DNA of 64,000 nt from the NCBI GenBank assembly GCA_016784145.1, contig JADHVF010000001.1, positions 159,339 through 223,338 on the forward strand, given 5' to 3'. The notes beneath the pieces are model-generated. The model was given only the letters and a program-made list of their open reading frames with translations, did no database searches and was not told the DNA's origin. Numbering within the stretch: position 1 is the first letter of the stretch; each line of letters begins with the position of its first letter. This document shows, one piece after another, positions 2,791 to 58,668 of the stretch. This DNA is from Patescibacteria group bacterium (GTDB taxonomy: Bacteria; Patescibacteriota; Patescibacteriia; UBA2591; UBA6264). The translations under genes were made by a program, and so were the position numbers.

Positions 2791-2826
2791 AAAAACATAA
2801 AAAGCCGTATTTATTTTAAAACACGG
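2791..2826. terminator. intrinsic terminator hairpin agccgt...acggct plus T-run
   Basis: Downstream of minus-strand ORF 2830..3174. Functional in both orientations. Confidence 0.5.
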
Positions 2827-2829
2827 CTT

Positions 2830-3174
2830 TTATTTTTGTAATAATAATAACGATCTTTCTTTTGCCATCCTGTTATTGTTATTCGTCCTAGCACGAATAA
2901 TACAAATATTTTGACAAAAAACTTCCCATTCATAAAACTGACAAATTCGCCCATCCTTAATCCCAAAATGAAACTTATTACTTTTAGCCCATCTTAATTC
3001 TAGGATGTCTTGTTTTGTAATTTTATGATTACTAATTATATGCTTTTTAATCTCTAAAAAATCAACATAATTGTATTTAACAACTCTATGTTCTTTGTCT
3101 TTAGAATTACACAACAAACATTTGAACAAAAAAAATCTACTATCAATATTATTCATTGCTGTAAAGTATCTCAT
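2830..3174 (-). CDS. hypothetical small protein with C2H2-like zinc-finger spacing (C-x2-C...H-x4-H) plus an extra Cys cluster
   Basis: ORF with GGAGGG RBS 5 nt upstream and its own TTGACA-17-TATCAT promoter. Divergent from the hexapeptide protein gene. Confidence 0.4.
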   Translation of the reverse strand: MRYFTAMNNIDSRFFLFKCLLCNSKDKEHRVVKYNYVDFLEIKKHIISNHKITKQDILELRWAKSNKFHFGIKDGRICQFYEWEVFCQNICIIRARTNNNNRMAKERSLLLLQK

Positions 3175-3212
3175 TGAATCCCTCCATCTCTTTATTTAAT
3201 GTACTAATCAAC

Positions 3213-3275
3213 ATGATATCAAAAAATCTTGCTTTTGTCAATCTAATTGACAACCAACCCTCTTTCTGCTACACT
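3213..3275. promoter_or_regulatory. divergent promoter pair sharing palindromic -35 region TTGTCAAT-cta-ATTGACAA (3235..3253). Plus strand TTGACA-17-TACACT; minus strand TTGACA-17-TATCAT
   Basis: Perfect 8+3+8 palindrome read directly. Each half provides a consensus TTGACA -35 with a 17-nt spacer to a -10-like hexamer. Candidate operator. Confidence 0.55.
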
Positions 3276-3311
3276 TAAAACTGGTTCATTAAATAAAAAA
3301 AGGAGGAAAAA

Positions 3312-3830
3312 ATGGAAAAAGGAATGAAAGGAAGTGATGGCACAAATTATCATCGCCATAAAAATGGTGGTGGCTGGGTTGCAGAAACTGCTTATGTTGC
3401 ACCAACAGCCTTTGTAGGACAAAAAGCATTTGTACTAGAAAGAGCAACTGTTATTGATAACGCAAAAATATATGGTAAAGCAATAATTTCTGGATCAGCT
3501 ACAATTTCTGAAAATGCAATGATTTCTGGAGAGGCTGAGGTTTCTCGAGCAGCCAGAGTATCTGGCAATGCAATAGTTTGTGGAAATGCCAGCATATTCA
3601 ATGCAGCCAATGTTTCTGGCAATGCTGTAATTTGTGGAAATGCACGAATTCAAGATGACGCAGAAATTAAAGGAAATGCAGTAGTTTGCGACAATGGCCA
3701 TGTCTATGGTCAAGCAAAAATTAATATCAATTCAGTAGTTTGCGACAATGGAAACATTGGAGAAGAAATAGACATCTTTGAAAGCATTATTGCATTCAAT
3801 CCATTTCAAAAACCAATAAAAAGAAACTAA
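3312..3830 (+). CDS. hexapeptide-repeat (left-handed parallel beta-helix) protein. Contains 21 consecutive A-x-[VI]-x-[GSD]-[NK] hexads with a Cys ladder (VCGNAS, ICGNAR, VCDNGH, VCDNGN)
   Basis: Strong AAGGAGG RBS. Strict 6-residue periodicity across about 126 aa. Terminator 3841..3874. The antisense ORFs in the track are repeat artefacts. Confidence 0.7.
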   Translation: MEKGMKGSDGTNYHRHKNGGGWVAETAYVAPTAFVGQKAFVLERATVIDNAKIYGKAIISGSATISENAMISGEAEVSRAARVSGNAIVCGNASIFNAANVSGNAVICGNARIQDDAEIKGNAVVCDNGHVYGQAKININSVVCDNGNIGEEIDIFESIIAFNPFQKPIKRN

Positions 3831-3837
3831 AAACAAC

Positions 3838-3875
3838 AAAACCGCTCTTTGACTAAAATTAGAGCGGTTTTTTCT
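3838..3875. terminator. intrinsic terminator accgctct...agagcggt-tttttt
   Basis: GC hairpin plus T6, between convergent genes. Confidence 0.7.
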
Positions 3876-3880
3876 ATTTA

Positions 3881-4402
3881 TTATTTAGCAACCCAAATAT
3901 CTTTATAAATAGGTCCCTCAAGAGTTAAAGTACTTTTTATAAGTTTAAAAGATTTAACTTGAAATTGACTTGGCTTAAAATTTATATTTTCAATTTTCTT
4001 TTTTAATAAATTATTATCTTTAACATGTTTCACCCTGCCAAGAGTAATGTGTGGATGAAACCTTTTTTCTTTGGCATAAAATCCTGTCAAAGAATTATCA
4101 ACCTCTTGTTGTAACTTTATTACACTTTTATTATTTTCTAATCCAACCCAAATAACTTTTATTTTCTTTGGCGTAAAATGTCCAATAGTTGAAAAGTTTA
4201 TTAAAAAAGGATTGATATCTACTTTCTCAAGTAATTGTTTTATTCTATCAACGCTAGTATCTGCGACTTCTCCTAAAAATTTTAGGGTTAAGTGATATGA
4301 ATTAGTATATTTTATAGTTGCCTCATCTCCTTTAATTTTTGTTTGCAAATTAGTAAAAAAATCACACAAATTATTAACATCAATAGCTATAAATAATCTC
4401 AT
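3881..4402 (-). CDS. thpR: RNA 2',3'-cyclic phosphodiesterase (2H phosphoesterase, LigT/ThpR family)
   Basis: Two H-x-T-x motifs (HLTLKF and HITLGR) with the spacing typical of LigT. Confidence 0.8.
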   Translation of the reverse strand: MRLFIAIDVNNLCDFFTNLQTKIKGDEATIKYTNSYHLTLKFLGEVADTSVDRIKQLLEKVDINPFLINFSTIGHFTPKKIKVIWVGLENNKSVIKLQQEVDNSLTGFYAKEKRFHPHITLGRVKHVKDNNLLKKKIENINFKPSQFQVKSFKLIKSTLTLEGPIYKDIWVAK

Positions 4403-4480
4403 AAAAAAATTGATTATATTTTTTATTTATCTTTATTAAAACTAAATAAATTATAACAAGCCAAAAGTTCCTTGCCAACA

Positions 4481-4509
4481 TTGACAAGAAATCATTAGTA
4501 TGTTATATT
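4481..4509 (+). promoter_or_regulatory. sigma70-like promoter TTGACA-17-TATATT for cspA, with a leader of about 100 nt
   Basis: Consensus -35, 17-nt spacer and a -10-like hexamer. Long 5' UTRs are typical of cold-shock genes. Confidence 0.5.
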
Positions 4510-4619: not shown

Positions 4620-4817
4620 ATGGAAGGAACCATTAAAAAGTTAACTGACAAAAACTTCGGTTTTATTACTCAAGAAGATAGCGACAAAGATTTATTCTTT
4701 CACGCTAGCGAACTAGACGGAGTTGAGTTCAGTGACTTAAGAGAAGGTGACGCAGTAACTTTTGAAGTAAAAGATACTCCAAAAGGACCAGCTGCAAATC
4801 AAGTAAAAAAAGCTTAA
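4620..4817 (+). CDS. cspA: cold-shock protein (CspA family)
   Basis: RNP1-like KGFGFI and RNP2-like FFH motifs. Length 65 aa. Confidence 0.9.
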   Translation: MEGTIKKLTDKNFGFITQEDSDKDLFFHASELDGVEFSDLREGDAVTFEVKDTPKGPAANQVKKA

Positions 4818-6726: not shown

Positions 6727-6762
6727 TATATTCTTGACAAAAACACCAAATCTGCTATTTTA
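6727..6762 (+). promoter_or_regulatory. promoter module copy 1: tatattcttgacaaaaacaccaaatctg (TTGACA -35 plus conserved downstream 15-mer)
   Basis: Identical 28-mer repeated at 7239..7266. Positioned about 60-85 nt upstream of the GTG start of ORF 6817. Confidence 0.5.
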
Positions 6763-8057: not shown

Positions 8058-8132
8058 TGGCTCCGGAGGGCGGGTTCGAACCGCCGACACGCTGGTTAAC
8101 AGCCAGCTGCTCTGCCACTGAGCTACTCCGGA
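8058..8132 (-). tRNA. tRNA-Asn (anticodon GTT), CCA encoded
   Basis: Cloverleaf found in the reverse complement: acceptor TCCGGAG/CTCCGGA, anticodon stem-loop GCTGG-CTGTTAA-CCAGC, T-arm GGTTCGAACCC. Followed on the minus strand by two hairpins (8034..8057 and 8001..8031). Confidence 0.85.
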
Positions 8133-8307: not shown

Positions 8308-9579
8308 TCAATAATAATCTTTGATTTTTTTGGTATCACCAAGCTCTCTAATTCTTTCCAATGCTCGAGCTTCAATTTGTCTGATTCTCTCTCTAGTAAC
8401 ACCAAATACCTGTCCAACTTCTTCTAATGTATGAGCTACTCCGTCTGAAAGTCCAAATCTAATATCCAGTATTTTCTGCTCTCTTGATGAGAGGTCTGAG
8501 GTCACTTCTTTCATATATTTTTTCAAAAGAGCAAGCGCAGCCACTTTGTCAGGTGTTATTGTTTTTATGTCTTCAATAAAATCAGCTAGTTCTGTATTTT
8601 TGTCATCATCTTTTCCAACCGTTGTTTCTAATGAAATAACATCTTGTGATATTTTAATTAAATACCTGGCTTCATCTGCGCCTATTTCTAATTCGTCAGC
8701 TATTTCTTCTGGGGATGGTCGCCTGCCTAATGCTTGCGCCAAATATCTGTCTGCTTTTTTAAATTTTCCTAAAACTTCAACCACATGGACAGGAATTCTG
8801 ATTGTTCTTGATTGATCTGCTAATGAACGGATAATTGCCTGTCTTATCCACCAAACAGCATAAGTTGAAAATCTATAGCCTCTTTTCCAATCAAATTTTT
8901 CTACAGCTCTGAAAAGTCCGATGTTTCCTTCTTGAATTAAGTCCAAAAAAGTTAACCCATAACCAGAAAATTTTTTAGCAACACTGACAACTAAACGCAA
9001 ATTTGATTCTATTAACTTCATTTTGGCAAACTCATCTCCATCGTCTTTGAGTTTGGCTAGTTCTACTTCTTCTTTGGGGGTTATTAAAGATACTCTGCCA
9101 ATTTCCTTTAAATACATCTGAATCGAATCAGCTGACAACTTGCTTAAATCTAACATGAATTTATTGTCTTTTTTTTCTTCTTGATCCAATAGATTTTCTT
9201 TTGATTCAGCTATATTTATACCAGCTTTTTCTAATTTATCAAGAAAATCCTCGTATTCATCTAAATACTTTTCTAATCTAACAAAAACATGAAGTAACTC
9301 ATTTTCCGTCACAAATCCCCTTTTTCTCCCTTTGTTGGCTAATCTGTCCGCCTCTTGTTCTGGAAATTTAATTGAATAGATTGGATCTGTCTTAACCAGT
9401 TTGACAACTTTTTTCTTAAGAGATTTTTTCTTTTTCACCACTGTCTTTGGTTTAATCACTTTCTTTTTCACTTTTTTCTTAAGAATCTTTTTCTTTTTCA
9501 CAGCTGTCTTTGATTTAATCGCTTTCTTTTTTAGAAATGCCTTTGTTTTTAAAATTTTCTTTTTTTTCTTAATTGACAT
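8308..9579 (-). CDS. rpoD: RNA polymerase sigma factor RpoD (sigma-70) with lysine-rich N-terminal repeat extension
   Basis: Regions 2-4 are conserved ([26 protein letters not shown]...RERIRQIE). TGA stop. The first ~60 residues consist of KKK-x repeats. Confidence 0.93.
9414..9535. repeat. imperfect tandem duplication of about 60 bp encoding the Lys-rich N-terminus of RpoD
   Basis: Two near-identical units read directly (ttcttaaga...tttcaccactgtctttggtttaatcactttctttttcac). Confidence 0.6.
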
Positions 9580-9593
9580 AAATTATTTAAAAA

Positions 9594-11372
9594 TCATTTT
9601 GAAATTTGTTTTGATAATCCATTAATTTTTTGACTGATTTCTTTTATATCCTGCTTATTACCTTCTTCCTCTGCATGTCTTAACTCATCTATTAATCTCT
9701 CTATTTTGGTGTTTAAATATCTTTTTTTAAAGAGATTAAATGACTTGGTTAATTCTCTATCCACTTTTTCCTTTTTAAATCCCTTAAATTCTTTGTCTGC
9801 TAAAAAAGTTAAGAAAGTAAAATAATTAAGCAAATCTTTATCTTTGATTGTTTTCTTTATTTTTTCTGCTTCAATTTTTTCTGAATTGTCAAAATATTCT
9901 TTTGTTTTGGTTAGTATTTGTTTTAAGTTTTCTGTTTCAAACATGTCTAACAATAACTTATCTAAAACTTTTTTTCCTTGTTCAGGGAAAGTTAAAATCA
10001 TTGCTAAAAATTTTTCTTGTATTTGTTGAATGCCTGTTTTTAATTCTGCTAACTGAGCAGGTTGACTTGAATAAGTTGGTCTTTTTGAAGCATTAATCTT
10101 TTTCAAAGCATCAATCAAAAAAACTTCTGAAACATTTATTTTATTACTAAGATTTTTTAACCATAATCCCTGCTCTACTGAATCCCCTAATTTCGCAATG
10201 ATTGGCAAAAGTGTTTTGGTGACCTCTTTTCTGTCTGAAAGATTTGCTAAATCCTTATCTTTAAGTACTAATGAAAAATAATATTCCATAATTGGGATTG
10301 GATTTTTAACTGCTTGCTTCCAGCTCTTTATATCCTCTCTAATACATTCATCAGGGTCTTTGCCCTTAGTTAGTTCTAAGATTTTAACATCAAGTCCTTG
10401 TTTTAGCAAGAGGTCAATACTTCGAGAGGTAGCTGTTTGCCCGGCCAGGTCAACATCAAATCCTAAAATTATATTTTCAGTATATCTTTTTAATATATTT
10501 GCTTGTTGATCTGTTAAGGCTGTGCCAGAGGTACAAACAACATTTTTTGTATCTGCTTGGTGAGCTGAAATGACATCAACATTGCCTTCAACTAGAATTA
10601 CTTTATCATAATGTCTGATTTTTTGTTTAGCCATGTCTAAGCCATATAAAACCCTACTTTTGTTATAGATTTGAGTTTCAGGGGTATTAATATATTTACC
10701 AATCTGGTCATCTTCTGCTTCTGGCATTATTCTTGAAGTAAAACCAATTGTTTGCCCAAACATATCTCTTATTGGAAACATTATTCTATTACGAAAACGA
10801 TCATAATATTTGTTACTTGATTTTCTAGATTTAACAATCAAACCAGCCATTTCAATATGTTTAAAGGAAAAACCTCTTTTAATTAAAAAATTCAATAAAG
10901 TATCCCATTTGTCAGGGGCAAAACCAAGCTCAAACTCTTCAATTGTTTTTTTCTTTAAATTTCTTTGTTTTAAATATTTTCTGGCTGAATTAGCAGATTT
11001 TGAATCCATTAATACTTTATGATAAAACTTGGCACTAATATTACAAATATCAAGTAGCTTTGTTTTAGCGCTATCAAAACTTTTATCTTTCTTCTCAGAA
11101 ATATTAACGCCTGCTTTTTTTGCCAAAATGCGCAAGGCTTCTGGAAAATCAATTCCTTCTATTTCTTGGACAAAACCAAACATATCCGAACCCTTGGAGC
11201 AGCCAAAACAATGCCATATCTGTTTTTCTTGCGAAACATGAAAAGATGGATTTTCTTCCTTGTGAAACGGGCACGGAGCTTTAAAACTGGTGCCTGATTG
11301 TTTTAGATGAACATAGTCAGATATAACATCAACAATGTCTAGTTTTGATTTTATTTCATCAACAACATCCAT
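9594..11372 (-). CDS. dnaG: DNA primase
   Basis: CHC2 zinc finger (CPFHKEENPSFHV...CFGC) and TOPRIM (LVEGNVDVIS). Forms a dnaG-rpoD operon. Confidence 0.93.
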   Translation of the reverse strand: MDVVDEIKSKLDIVDVISDYVHLKQSGTSFKAPCPFHKEENPSFHVSQEKQIWHCFGCSKGSDMFGFVQEIEGIDFPEALRILAKKAGVNISEKKDKSFDSAKTKLLDICNISAKFYHKVLMDSKSANSARKYLKQRNLKKKTIEEFELGFAPDKWDTLLNFLIKRGFSFKHIEMAGLIVKSRKSSNKYYDRFRNRIMFPIRDMFGQTIGFTSRIMPEAEDDQIGKYINTPETQIYNKSRVLYGLDMAKQKIRHYDKVILVEGNVDVISAHQADTKNVVCTSGTALTDQQANILKRYTENIILGFDVDLAGQTATSRSIDLLLKQGLDVKILELTKGKDPDECIREDIKSWKQAVKNPIPIMEYYFSLVLKDKDLANLSDRKEVTKTLLPIIAKLGDSVEQGLWLKNLSNKINVSEVFLIDALKKINASKRPTYSSQPAQLAELKTGIQQIQEKFLAMILTFPEQGKKVLDKLLLDMFETENLKQILTKTKEYFDNSEKIEAEKIKKTIKDKDLLNYFTFLTFLADKEFKGFKKEKVDRELTKSFNLFKKRYLNTKIERLIDELRHAEEEGNKQDIKEISQKINGLSKQISK

Positions 11373-17664: not shown

Positions 17665-17752
17665 TGGCGGAGAGGAAGGGATTCGAACCCTTGATACCTT
17701 GCGGTATACTGCCTTTCCAAGGCAGCGCAATCGGCCTCTATGCGACCTCTCC
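17665..17752 (-). tRNA. tRNA-Ser (anticodon GGA), long variable arm, CCA encoded
   Basis: Reverse complement GGAGAGGTCGCATAGAGGCC...CTGCC-TTGGAAA-GGCAG...long variable arm...GGGTTCGAATCCCTTCCTCTCCGCCA. Confidence 0.85.
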
Positions 17753-26216: not shown

Positions 26217-26394
26217 TTTTAGCCTCCTTTTTTAATTGTTTTCTAAAAAGAACTGTTTCCATGATAGCAAAAAAGGGCTTGTTAGTCAATCATGATGTAA
26301 CAAAAGGATATCAATTTCGTCAAAATAGATATAAGTAAAAAATATTATGAATAATAACAATCAAAAACACTATAAATGTTCTTGGAGGAATACA

Positions 26395-26572: not shown

Positions 26573-26605
26573 TAACATAATAAACTAAAAAAAAGGAGGC
26601 CAATT

Positions 26606-28350: not shown

Positions 28351-28432
28351 AAATTTTATTTACAGATTTATTATTTTATATTATAATAATAAAGAATAAT
28401 ATTGGCAACTTTTTAATTAATTATAAAAATTT

Positions 28433-31541: not shown

Positions 31542-31715
31542 AAAAATTATAATTAATAATTTAAAAAATCTGCGCAATCGCAGACCCAAAAAATAAAATA
31601 AAATATTTTTGTTTGTCTAGGGAGGCATTTAATTAAGCTTTAACAAGCGCCCACTGTCTACGACTAATATAATTTTAAAATAATTAAATTTATTTGTCAA
31701 ATATTTTCTCCACAA

Positions 31716-57884: not shown

Positions 57885-58180
57885 CTTAGACAAGCGAGCG
57901 ATTGCGTTCAACTATTTTGTTGAATGAGGAAAGTCCGAACACTCCCCTTTTTAATTAAAACTTTGTTTTAAAATAAAAGGGAGCAAGGTAGCGGGTAATA
58001 CCCGTCGTCAGTCATATTTTTATGGCTAGATAGAGGTGCGAACAGTGACGACTTAAATTCGAAAGAATTTAGTTGCCCTATATTTTAGGGTAAATCTCGA
58101 TAGAAATATTGAGAATGAAACGGCTAAATCTTTACCCGGGTGAAAGACCAAAAAAAATCTGTTATATTAATAACTGATTA
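57885..58180 (+). ncRNA. rnpB: RNase P RNA (bacterial, reduced)
   Basis: P4 5' strand GAGGAAAGUCCGAAC and P4 3' strand AGAAUGAAACGGCUAAAU read directly, with a P3-like hairpin gttcaac...gttgaa between them. Boundaries are approximate. Confidence 0.6.
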
Positions 58181-58269
58181 GGTGGGTCGCTAGAACTAAA
58201 TTGCAAAATTTAGTCAAGATAAATAATCGCTGCTCATTTATTGAGTACAGAATTCGGCTTATAGCTTGT

Positions 58270-58668
58270 TTAGGTCCTTTTCATTGCTTGGTTGGCCATT
58301 TTGTCGGCCTGATAATTTTTTTCTCTAGGAATATGATAAAAATTAATTTTATCAAAAACCTGACACAAGTTCCAAACTTTTATAAATAAAAATCCTAATT
58401 CAGGATTTTTTATTTTATATTTTCCATTAATATGATTAACAACTAACTGGCTATCTAAATAACAATCCACTTGTGTTGCTTTCATTTTTCTAACTTGGTT
58501 AAGCCCAATTATAAGAGCTTCATATTCTGCCTGATTATTTGTTTTAACACCTAAAAACTTTGCTATTTCTTTTATAACTTGTTTTTTGTCATTATAAATA
58601 ACAACTCCTGCTCCTGCTCGCCCTGGATTTCCTTTTGAACATCCGTCTGTGTAAATTATTAATTTCAT
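58270..58668 (-). CDS. rnhA: ribonuclease HI
   Basis: IYTDGCSKGNPG start and conserved DEDD residues (EYEALI, ADKMAN). Confidence 0.85.
   Translation of the reverse strand: MKLIIYTDGCSKGNPGRAGAGVVIYNDKKQVIKEIAKFLGVKTNNQAEYEALIIGLNQVRKMKATQVDCYLDSQLVVNHINGKYKIKNPELGFLFIKVWNLCQVFDKINFYHIPREKNYQADKMANQAMKRT

Follow-up and report, generated by a model that had tools for sequence, protein, structure and literature searches.

A perfect palindrome between two divergent genes of a Patescibacteria genome probably reflects two back-to-back sigma-A promoters

Divergently transcribed pairs composed of a regulator gene and its target, which share a single operator, are common (tetR/tetA and bioA/bioBFCD are examples). 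In the tetR-tetA (tetO) and bioA-bioBFCD (BirA) systems, the operators carry information that is distinct from the promoter consensus, and the regulators have recognisable DNA-binding domains. Operator consensuses are also known for Rex (TTGTGAA-N4-TTCACAA), FNR (TTGAT-N4-ATCAA) and OhrR-type regulators. Another arrangement, in which two divergent sigma-70 promoters are placed back to back, is reportedly treated as a class of its own in the 1988 review of Beck and Warren (Microbiol Rev). In the bidirectional promoters described by Warman et al., the −10 elements of the two strands overlap or are shared, and the transcription starts lie 7-25 bp apart, with a mode of 18 bp (bioRxiv 10.1101/2020.01.31.928960; PMC12825309).

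We analyzed a 64-kb stretch of DNA (64,000 nucleotides; referred to below as the window) from a Patescibacteria group bacterium, which has a G+C content of 30% and is approximately 89% coding. A gap of 137 bp separates an open reading frame (ORF) for a 114-aa protein on the minus strand from a hexapeptide-repeat gene on the plus strand, and holds the perfect palindrome TTGTCAAT-cta-ATTGACAA (also written TTGTCAATCTAATTGACAA), in which two fully complementary (100%) arms of 8 nt surround a 3-nt centre (Table 1). The initial annotation of this DNA had described the repeat, a TTGACA hexamer in each of its arms, 17-nt spacers leading to a −10 hexamer on either strand, and the two flanking genes; the coordinates, the arms, all of the hexamers and the gene assignments proved to be correct.

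Table 1. Coordinates of the features of the divergent gap, its flanking genes and the comparison site (positions in the window; an arrow denotes reading on the minus strand)
Feature	Position	Strand	Details and evidence
Terminator straight after the 114-aa ORF	2800..2831	-	intrinsic; 13-pair stem, then T run
114-aa Cys/His-containing ORF (probable gene)	2830..3174	-	Shine-Dalgarno, promoter, terminator, codon usage
Shine-Dalgarno and start codon, 114-aa ORF	3172..3185	-	GGAGGG 3185->3180, 5-nt spacer, ATG 3174->3172
Outer repeat, left arm	3191..3204	-	GTACATTAAATAAA on minus strand; ~+1..+16 of predicted minus mRNA
Predicted transcription start, 114-aa ORF	~3204-3206	-	
Predicted sigma-A promoter, 114-aa ORF	3213..3241	-	consensus scan, strict pattern; −35 TTGACA 3241->3236, 17-nt spacer, TGn 3221->3220 (n = a), −10 TATCAT 3218->3213
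Perfect palindrome, 19 bp	3235..3253		axis 3244
Predicted sigma-A promoter, hexapeptide gene	3247..3275	+	consensus scan, strict pattern; −35 TTGACA 3247-3252, 17-nt spacer, TGn 3267-3268 (n = c), −10 TACACT 3270-3275
Predicted transcription start, hexapeptide gene	~3282-3284	+	
Outer repeat, right arm	3284..3297	+	GTTCATTAAATAAA; ~+1..+16 of predicted plus mRNA
Shine-Dalgarno and start codon, hexapeptide gene	3302..3314	+	GGAGG 3302-3306, 5-nt spacer, ATG 3312-3314
Hexapeptide gene, 172 aa	3312..3830	+	left-handed beta-helix / YdcK beta-solenoid-repeat protein; PF18836
Terminator hairpin behind the hexapeptide gene	3838..3871	+	11-nt perfect arms, then T run
Comparison site, second back-to-back −35 pair	4473..4486		TTGCCA-ca-TTGACA; between LigT (-) and cold-shock gene CspA (+)

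The gap belongs to a class known for a long time, that of back-to-back divergent sigma-70-type promoters. As in the other members of this class, two separate core promoters are directed outwards on opposite strands, their upstream regions abut, and the −10 and −35 elements do not overlap. There is no essential difference, and the locus is a compact case, with only 5 nt between the −35 hexamers. It shares with the promoters of Warman et al. a DNA symmetry that stems from the placement of promoter elements on the two opposite strands and not from a regulator; however, here it is the −35 elements that abut, each promoter has a −10 element of its own, and the predicted starts are approximately 78 bp apart. 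A bidirectional promoter of the Warman type is ruled out by the separate −10 elements and by this predicted distance. The resemblance to shared operators of the tetO/bioO type is one of position only: in both cases a palindrome lies between divergent genes and overlaps promoter elements of the two, whereas the palindrome analyzed here contains no information beyond the promoter consensus, and the adjacent 114-aa protein has no DNA-binding domain recognisable with Pfam, NCBIfam, PADLOC, PHROGs or the PDB.

A consensus scan gave 10 matches out of 12 for the plus-strand promoter and 11 out of 12 for the minus-strand promoter, with an extended −10 TG in both. The −35 hexamer is perfect (6/6) on both strands. 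The −10 hexamers match at five (minus strand) and four (plus strand) of six positions; both retain A2 and T6 and are preceded by TGn, on which the plus-strand hexamer, with only four matches, relies. We also searched for a strict pattern composed of a perfect TTGACA, a spacer of 16-18 nt, TGn, and a −10 hexamer with at least four of six matches including A2 and T6. This pattern was found seven times in 64 kb, as compared with 0.36 times in shuffled sequences, and six of the seven sites are intergenic. Both promoters of the gap are among the seven, and their occurrence there is far beyond chance.

The window also encodes (at 8308-9579) a group-1 sigma factor of 423 aa, which matches SigA with E = 2e-102. 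Its −35-recognition helix in region 4.2 is identical to that of a structurally characterised SigA, and region 2.4 is almost so. The presence of such a canonical group-1 sigma means that the promoter consensus of E. coli and Bacillus is applicable to this DNA. The hexamers, the spacers, the TG dinucleotides, the placement of the Shine-Dalgarno sequences and start codons, and the sigma factor all agree, and the promoter half of the original interpretation is thereby upheld. The sequence thus supports the presence in the gap of two sigma-A type promoters with predictable start sites; both would be expected to fire, with transcription starting close to the predicted positions.

The two predicted leaders are each approximately 30 nt in length and end with GGAGG, five bases and ATG. 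Both the 114-aa ORF and the hexapeptide gene are complete units, consisting of a promoter, a Shine-Dalgarno sequence, an ORF and a terminator.

In our opinion, the palindrome is probably a geometric by-product of an ordinary back-to-back pair of divergent sigma-A promoters. Two independent promoters for the housekeeping sigma factor (sigma-A/sigma-70 type) would be accommodated in the 137-bp gap, with predicted starts at approximately 3205 (minus strand) and 3283 (plus strand). Since TTGACA reads TGTCAA on the other strand, any two divergent consensus −35 boxes constitute an inverted repeat. Given two TTGACA hexamers, six of the eight positions of each arm are symmetric by definition, which leaves only the two flanking positions. 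The additional A on either side of each hexamer would represent the −35 flanks preferred by this genome: of 17 strong intergenic promoter-like sites, 13 have an A directly behind the hexamer and 8 have one directly in front of it. These frequencies imply that, once two TTGACA hexamers are present, a perfect palindrome with 8-nt arms should arise roughly one time in eight. The shortness of the gap would push the −35 boxes together, as each side holds a promoter of about 35 bp and a leader of about 30 nt with its Shine-Dalgarno sequence.

The extended −35 element ATTGACAA has 10 copies in 64 kb, five or six of which are located in the 7 kb (11%) of non-coding DNA, where it is enriched approximately 10-fold. 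Apart from this generic element, no dyad symmetry was found in the palindrome. No special regulator is needed to explain the palindrome, and the sequence calls for none; presumably, no dedicated protein makes use of it.

The search for the palindrome elsewhere, which had been proposed as a check, was run within the 64-kb window and found only the one exact copy; relaxed matches there were not above chance. Perfect inverted repeats of the 8+3+8 type occur 16 times in the window (3.4 times in shuffled sequences), mostly as terminators, and as a bare repeat of this type the palindrome is unexceptional.

The next divergent pair consists of LigT (3881-4402, minus strand) and a cold-shock protein (4620-4817, plus strand), which are unrelated housekeeping genes. 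Between them, 1.2 kb from the palindrome, lies another back-to-back −35 pair (the comparison site of Table 1), with 17-nt spacers to TATAAT and TATATT and 11 of 12 consensus matches on each side, but the −35 boxes are separated by 2 nt and not by 5 nt as in the palindrome. In the divergent gaps near 6734-6740 and 28402-28408, the −35-like hexamers overlap. Such variable distances fit independent promoters in short gaps and not a dimeric regulator with a fixed spacing of half-sites. The −35 boxes of the LigT/cold-shock pair also form a near-palindrome (4468-4491), which was even reported as a hairpin by a terminator scan.

Metagenome contigs were scanned for TTGTCAAT-N3-ATTGACAA, which gave at least 120 loci, with 114 usable sites among the matches listed. 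The majority of the latter (79 of the 114) were situated within long open frames, where they probably occur by chance. Among the matches listed, a −10-like hexamer at a distance of 16-18 nt on at least one side accompanied 18 of the 35 likely non-coding sites and 11 of the 79 coding-like sites. Three contigs among the matches listed (L047, L133 and L032) carry double promoters with the same type of palindrome. In L133 it is located between divergent small ORFs, and in L047 a gene is present on the sole side that the contig covers, while in L032 the right-hand promoter is followed by an ORF on the opposite strand, and this locus is not a divergent pair. The L133 locus (10900-10975) contains TTGTCAAT-tgt-ATTGACAA with TATAAT 17 nt away on both sides, each followed by AATTTT and then an ATG placed 6-7 nt after the −10 hexamer; judged from this layout, both genes of the mirrored divergent pair look leaderless. 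One of them encodes a small Cys-rich protein. The motif is a recurrent, convergent product of the promoter consensus in unrelated organisms.

The initial annotation had gone further and proposed that a dimeric regulator binds the palindrome, with the "C2H2-like" 114-aa protein as the obvious candidate autoregulator. The 114-aa ORF probably represents a genuine gene, as suggested by its signals (Table 1) and its codon log-odds of +0.15 per codon, a value at the low end of the range for the genes of the window (0.10-0.75); both other frames are negative. The Cys/His pattern of the protein is C19-x2-C22-x22-H45-x4-H50 (i.e. CxxC and HxxxxH). In classical C2H2 fingers 12 residues separate the second Cys from the first His, and in Ros there are nine. 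A CxxC followed by a later HxxxxH is thus common to the classical C2H2 and Ros/MucR fingers and the 114-aa protein, but in the latter this Cys-to-His interval comprises 22 residues. The protein neither follows C-x2-4-C-x12-H-x3-5-H nor matches a corresponding profile, and no Pfam match was obtained at E ≤ 1. A BED-like spacing is conceivable, although a BED-like match was not detected.

Searches of Pfam, NCBIfam and PADLOC with the 114-aa protein yielded zero matches, PHROGs only two sub-threshold ones (E 0.04 and 0.05), and the PDB nothing significant (best E 1.3). A word-indexed search among 5.8 billion proteins revealed no homologues outside the same strain, and an exhaustive HMMER search of 1.84 billion cluster representatives likewise found no true homologue beyond it; a hit to a repeated plant P450-like fragment was spurious. 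The single-sequence AlphaFold (AF2) model, with a pLDDT of 35, was uninformative. The only database copy of the protein is encoded by a same-strain contig of 470 bp (L001; GCA_014874595.1, JACKQG011669964.1), which differs from the window by four SNPs, one of them synonymous in the core and three in the C-terminal tail; the changes in the tail include an earlier stop (108 aa). The contig numbering of GCA_014874595.1 reaches eight digits, and this is probably a host-associated or contaminated assembly.

We consider it quite unlikely that the palindrome also serves as an operator, at which a dimeric regulator, possibly the 114-aa protein itself, would block both −35 boxes and thereby control its own gene as well as the hexapeptide gene. 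In favour of such a role are the perfection and the length (19 bp) of the palindrome, its position exactly midway between the two promoters, the features of the 114-aa ORF that make it look real, its CxxC and HxxxxH motifs, and the precedent of the shared operators mentioned above. However, the symmetry is that of the generic extended −35 element alone, and the neighbouring back-to-back pair has a different gap. The sole similar site of the window is this one between LigT and the cold-shock gene, and the databases contain no orthologous loci. To our knowledge, the palindrome matches none of the Rex, FNR and OhrR-type consensuses in both half-site and spacing. The 114-aa protein, for its part, belongs to no family, lacks a recognisable DNA-binding domain and homologues outside the strain, and has a Cys-His spacing that departs from the classical one and an uninformative model; furthermore, the homologues of the hexapeptide gene are not accompanied by such a divergent partner.

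The hexapeptide gene matches the YdcK beta-solenoid profile PF18836 with 32.6 bits (cut-off 30), while its Hexapep and LbH_EIF2B matches are below their respective cut-offs. This family is common in phages, and the gene matches the phage families phrog_7964 (E = 5e-32) and phrog_5070 (E ~1e-30). Relatives of the protein share no more than 48% identity with it and are not syntenic. Homologues of the gene are found in one-directional, phage-like arrays without a divergent Cys-rich partner, with P22 Y8K6-like, PAPS reductase and SNF2 helicase genes as neighbours (loci L138, L139 and L140), whereas in the window the gene is solitary and has a promoter and a terminator to itself. Judged by these relatives, it may possibly be a phage-derived acquisition. 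Nothing but their position ties the 114-aa ORF functionally to the hexapeptide gene.

Diverged orthologous loci were searched for by means of the 114-aa protein, the hexapeptide protein and adenylate kinase (adk), and none were found; the related loci that were recovered belong to the same strain (>99.9% identity), with no diverged syntenic relative. The adk search identified seven same-strain contigs, and the next relative (73% identity) lacks synteny. The adenylate kinase (2098-2727) is 100% identical to an NCBI protein labelled "Patescibacteria group bacterium", in keeping with an origin of the window from the Patescibacteria (CPR). Its nearest homologues that are not identical (~70% identity) are labelled Nanoarchaeota, Woesearchaeota or Pacearchaeota (DPANN), again with non-syntenic loci, a pattern that could result from inter-domain transfer between ultra-small lineages or from mis-binning.

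Several other elements were observed in the window. A G+C-richer element of ~155 bp (803-957), located between a 220-aa ORF and alr, has copies of 97% and 95% identity immediately outside the window on its left side (L008 9012-9235); it matches no Rfam family at threshold and may be a small RNA or else a dispersed repeat. A class A RNase P RNA (57886-58277) scores just above the gathering score, and its 3′-end overlaps the start of an ORF called at 58270-58668. An L10 leader (31552-31681), tRNA-Asn (8058-8132) and tRNA-Ser (17665-17752) are also present.

The gap contains an additional, outer inverted repeat, which shares its axis with the −35 palindrome and is located where the two mRNAs are predicted to begin. 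Its arms match at 13 of 14 positions and correspond to the motif GT[A/T]CATTAAATAAA. The 11-mer CATTAAATAAA has no further occurrence in the window. Outside the −35 elements and the outer repeat, the identity of the two arms of the gap (17/49) equals the background. An uninterrupted run of at least 11 matches on this axis had p = 5e-5 in mononucleotide shuffles and was never obtained in 20,000 dinucleotide shuffles. Since the outer repeat was found post hoc, we set the shuffle p aside in favour of a control with real leaders: among 1891 pairs of leaders of the window, 16 (0.85%) share at least 11 nt in a register of ±2 nt, and 95 (5%) do so at any register. The leader of adk has a similar TCATTAAAATAAAAA, and A-rich tracts before the Shine-Dalgarno sequence are general in the window. 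One other divergent pair has identical 12-nt Shine-Dalgarno contexts (AAAAAAGGAGGC) in mirrored orientation, at 26222-26233 and 26589-26600, which indicates that translation signals can by themselves give rise to extended inverted repeats between divergent genes. When folded in full, the gap forms a long hairpin (z = −4.4 and −5.6); this is due to the mirrored −35 elements, leaders and Shine-Dalgarno sequences and does not argue for a structured RNA. Each leader by itself folds no better than its shuffles. We regard the significance of the outer repeat as suggestive only. The promoter consensus alone does not account for this repeat, which could be a hint of co-regulation.

According to a reading that we judge unlikely, the gap is a mirrored module, generated by inverted duplication or maintained by selection, in which the 14-nt element co-regulates both genes, either as a DNA operator at approximately +1 to +16 or as a signal at the RNA level. 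The near-perfect match of the arms, their common axis with the inner palindrome, the uniqueness of the 11-mer, the shuffle statistics, the drop to background identity outside the −35 elements and the outer repeat, and the hairpin fold of the gap are all consistent with such a module. Opposed to this are the frequencies with which real leader pairs share as much, in register or in any, together with the similar adk leader, the generality of the A-rich tracts, the post hoc identification of the element, and the folding of the leaders, which is no better than that of shuffled sequences. That the module is run by the 114-aa Cys/His protein, as a new zinc-binding regulator of the Patescibacteria, is very unlikely. 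If this were true, the regulator would bind the −35 palindrome and/or the mirrored 14-nt element, as DNA or RNA, and would control its own gene together with a phage-derived beta-solenoid gene; a functional leader element would mark a small co-regulated unit of two genes.

It is scarcely credible that the palindrome acts as a nucleic-acid structure, i.e. as a DNA cruciform, an RNA hairpin or terminator, or a mobile-element terminus. In single-stranded form, its DNA folds into an 8-bp hairpin (−5.5 kcal/mol, z = −5.9), and the outer repeat may be read as the terminal inverted repeats of a 107-bp element. However, the stem is AT-rich and lacks a T run, the palindrome lies upstream of both predicted starts and so would escape transcription, and the putative element has neither flanking direct repeats nor a second copy in 64 kb, nor is there a match to an Rfam family. 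A role as a terminator or hairpin was rejected, given that only two of the eight base pairs are G-C, in addition to the missing T run and the position upstream of the predicted starts; the terminator scan did not report the palindrome. The interpretation of 3191-3297 as a MITE was discarded, with no second copy in the window and no flanking direct repeats, and an Rfam search of 3100-3400 found nothing.

The locus matters little in itself, and its usefulness is as a warning to those who scan sequences: an inverted repeat invariably results from two divergent consensus −35 boxes, so that a palindrome between divergent genes, even a perfect one, is no evidence for an operator. As regards promoter usage in this uncultivated Patescibacteria genome, the window points to canonical TTGACA/TATAAT elements in the ATTGACAA context, a frequent TGn and a canonical SigA, with divergent promoters that are tightly packed.
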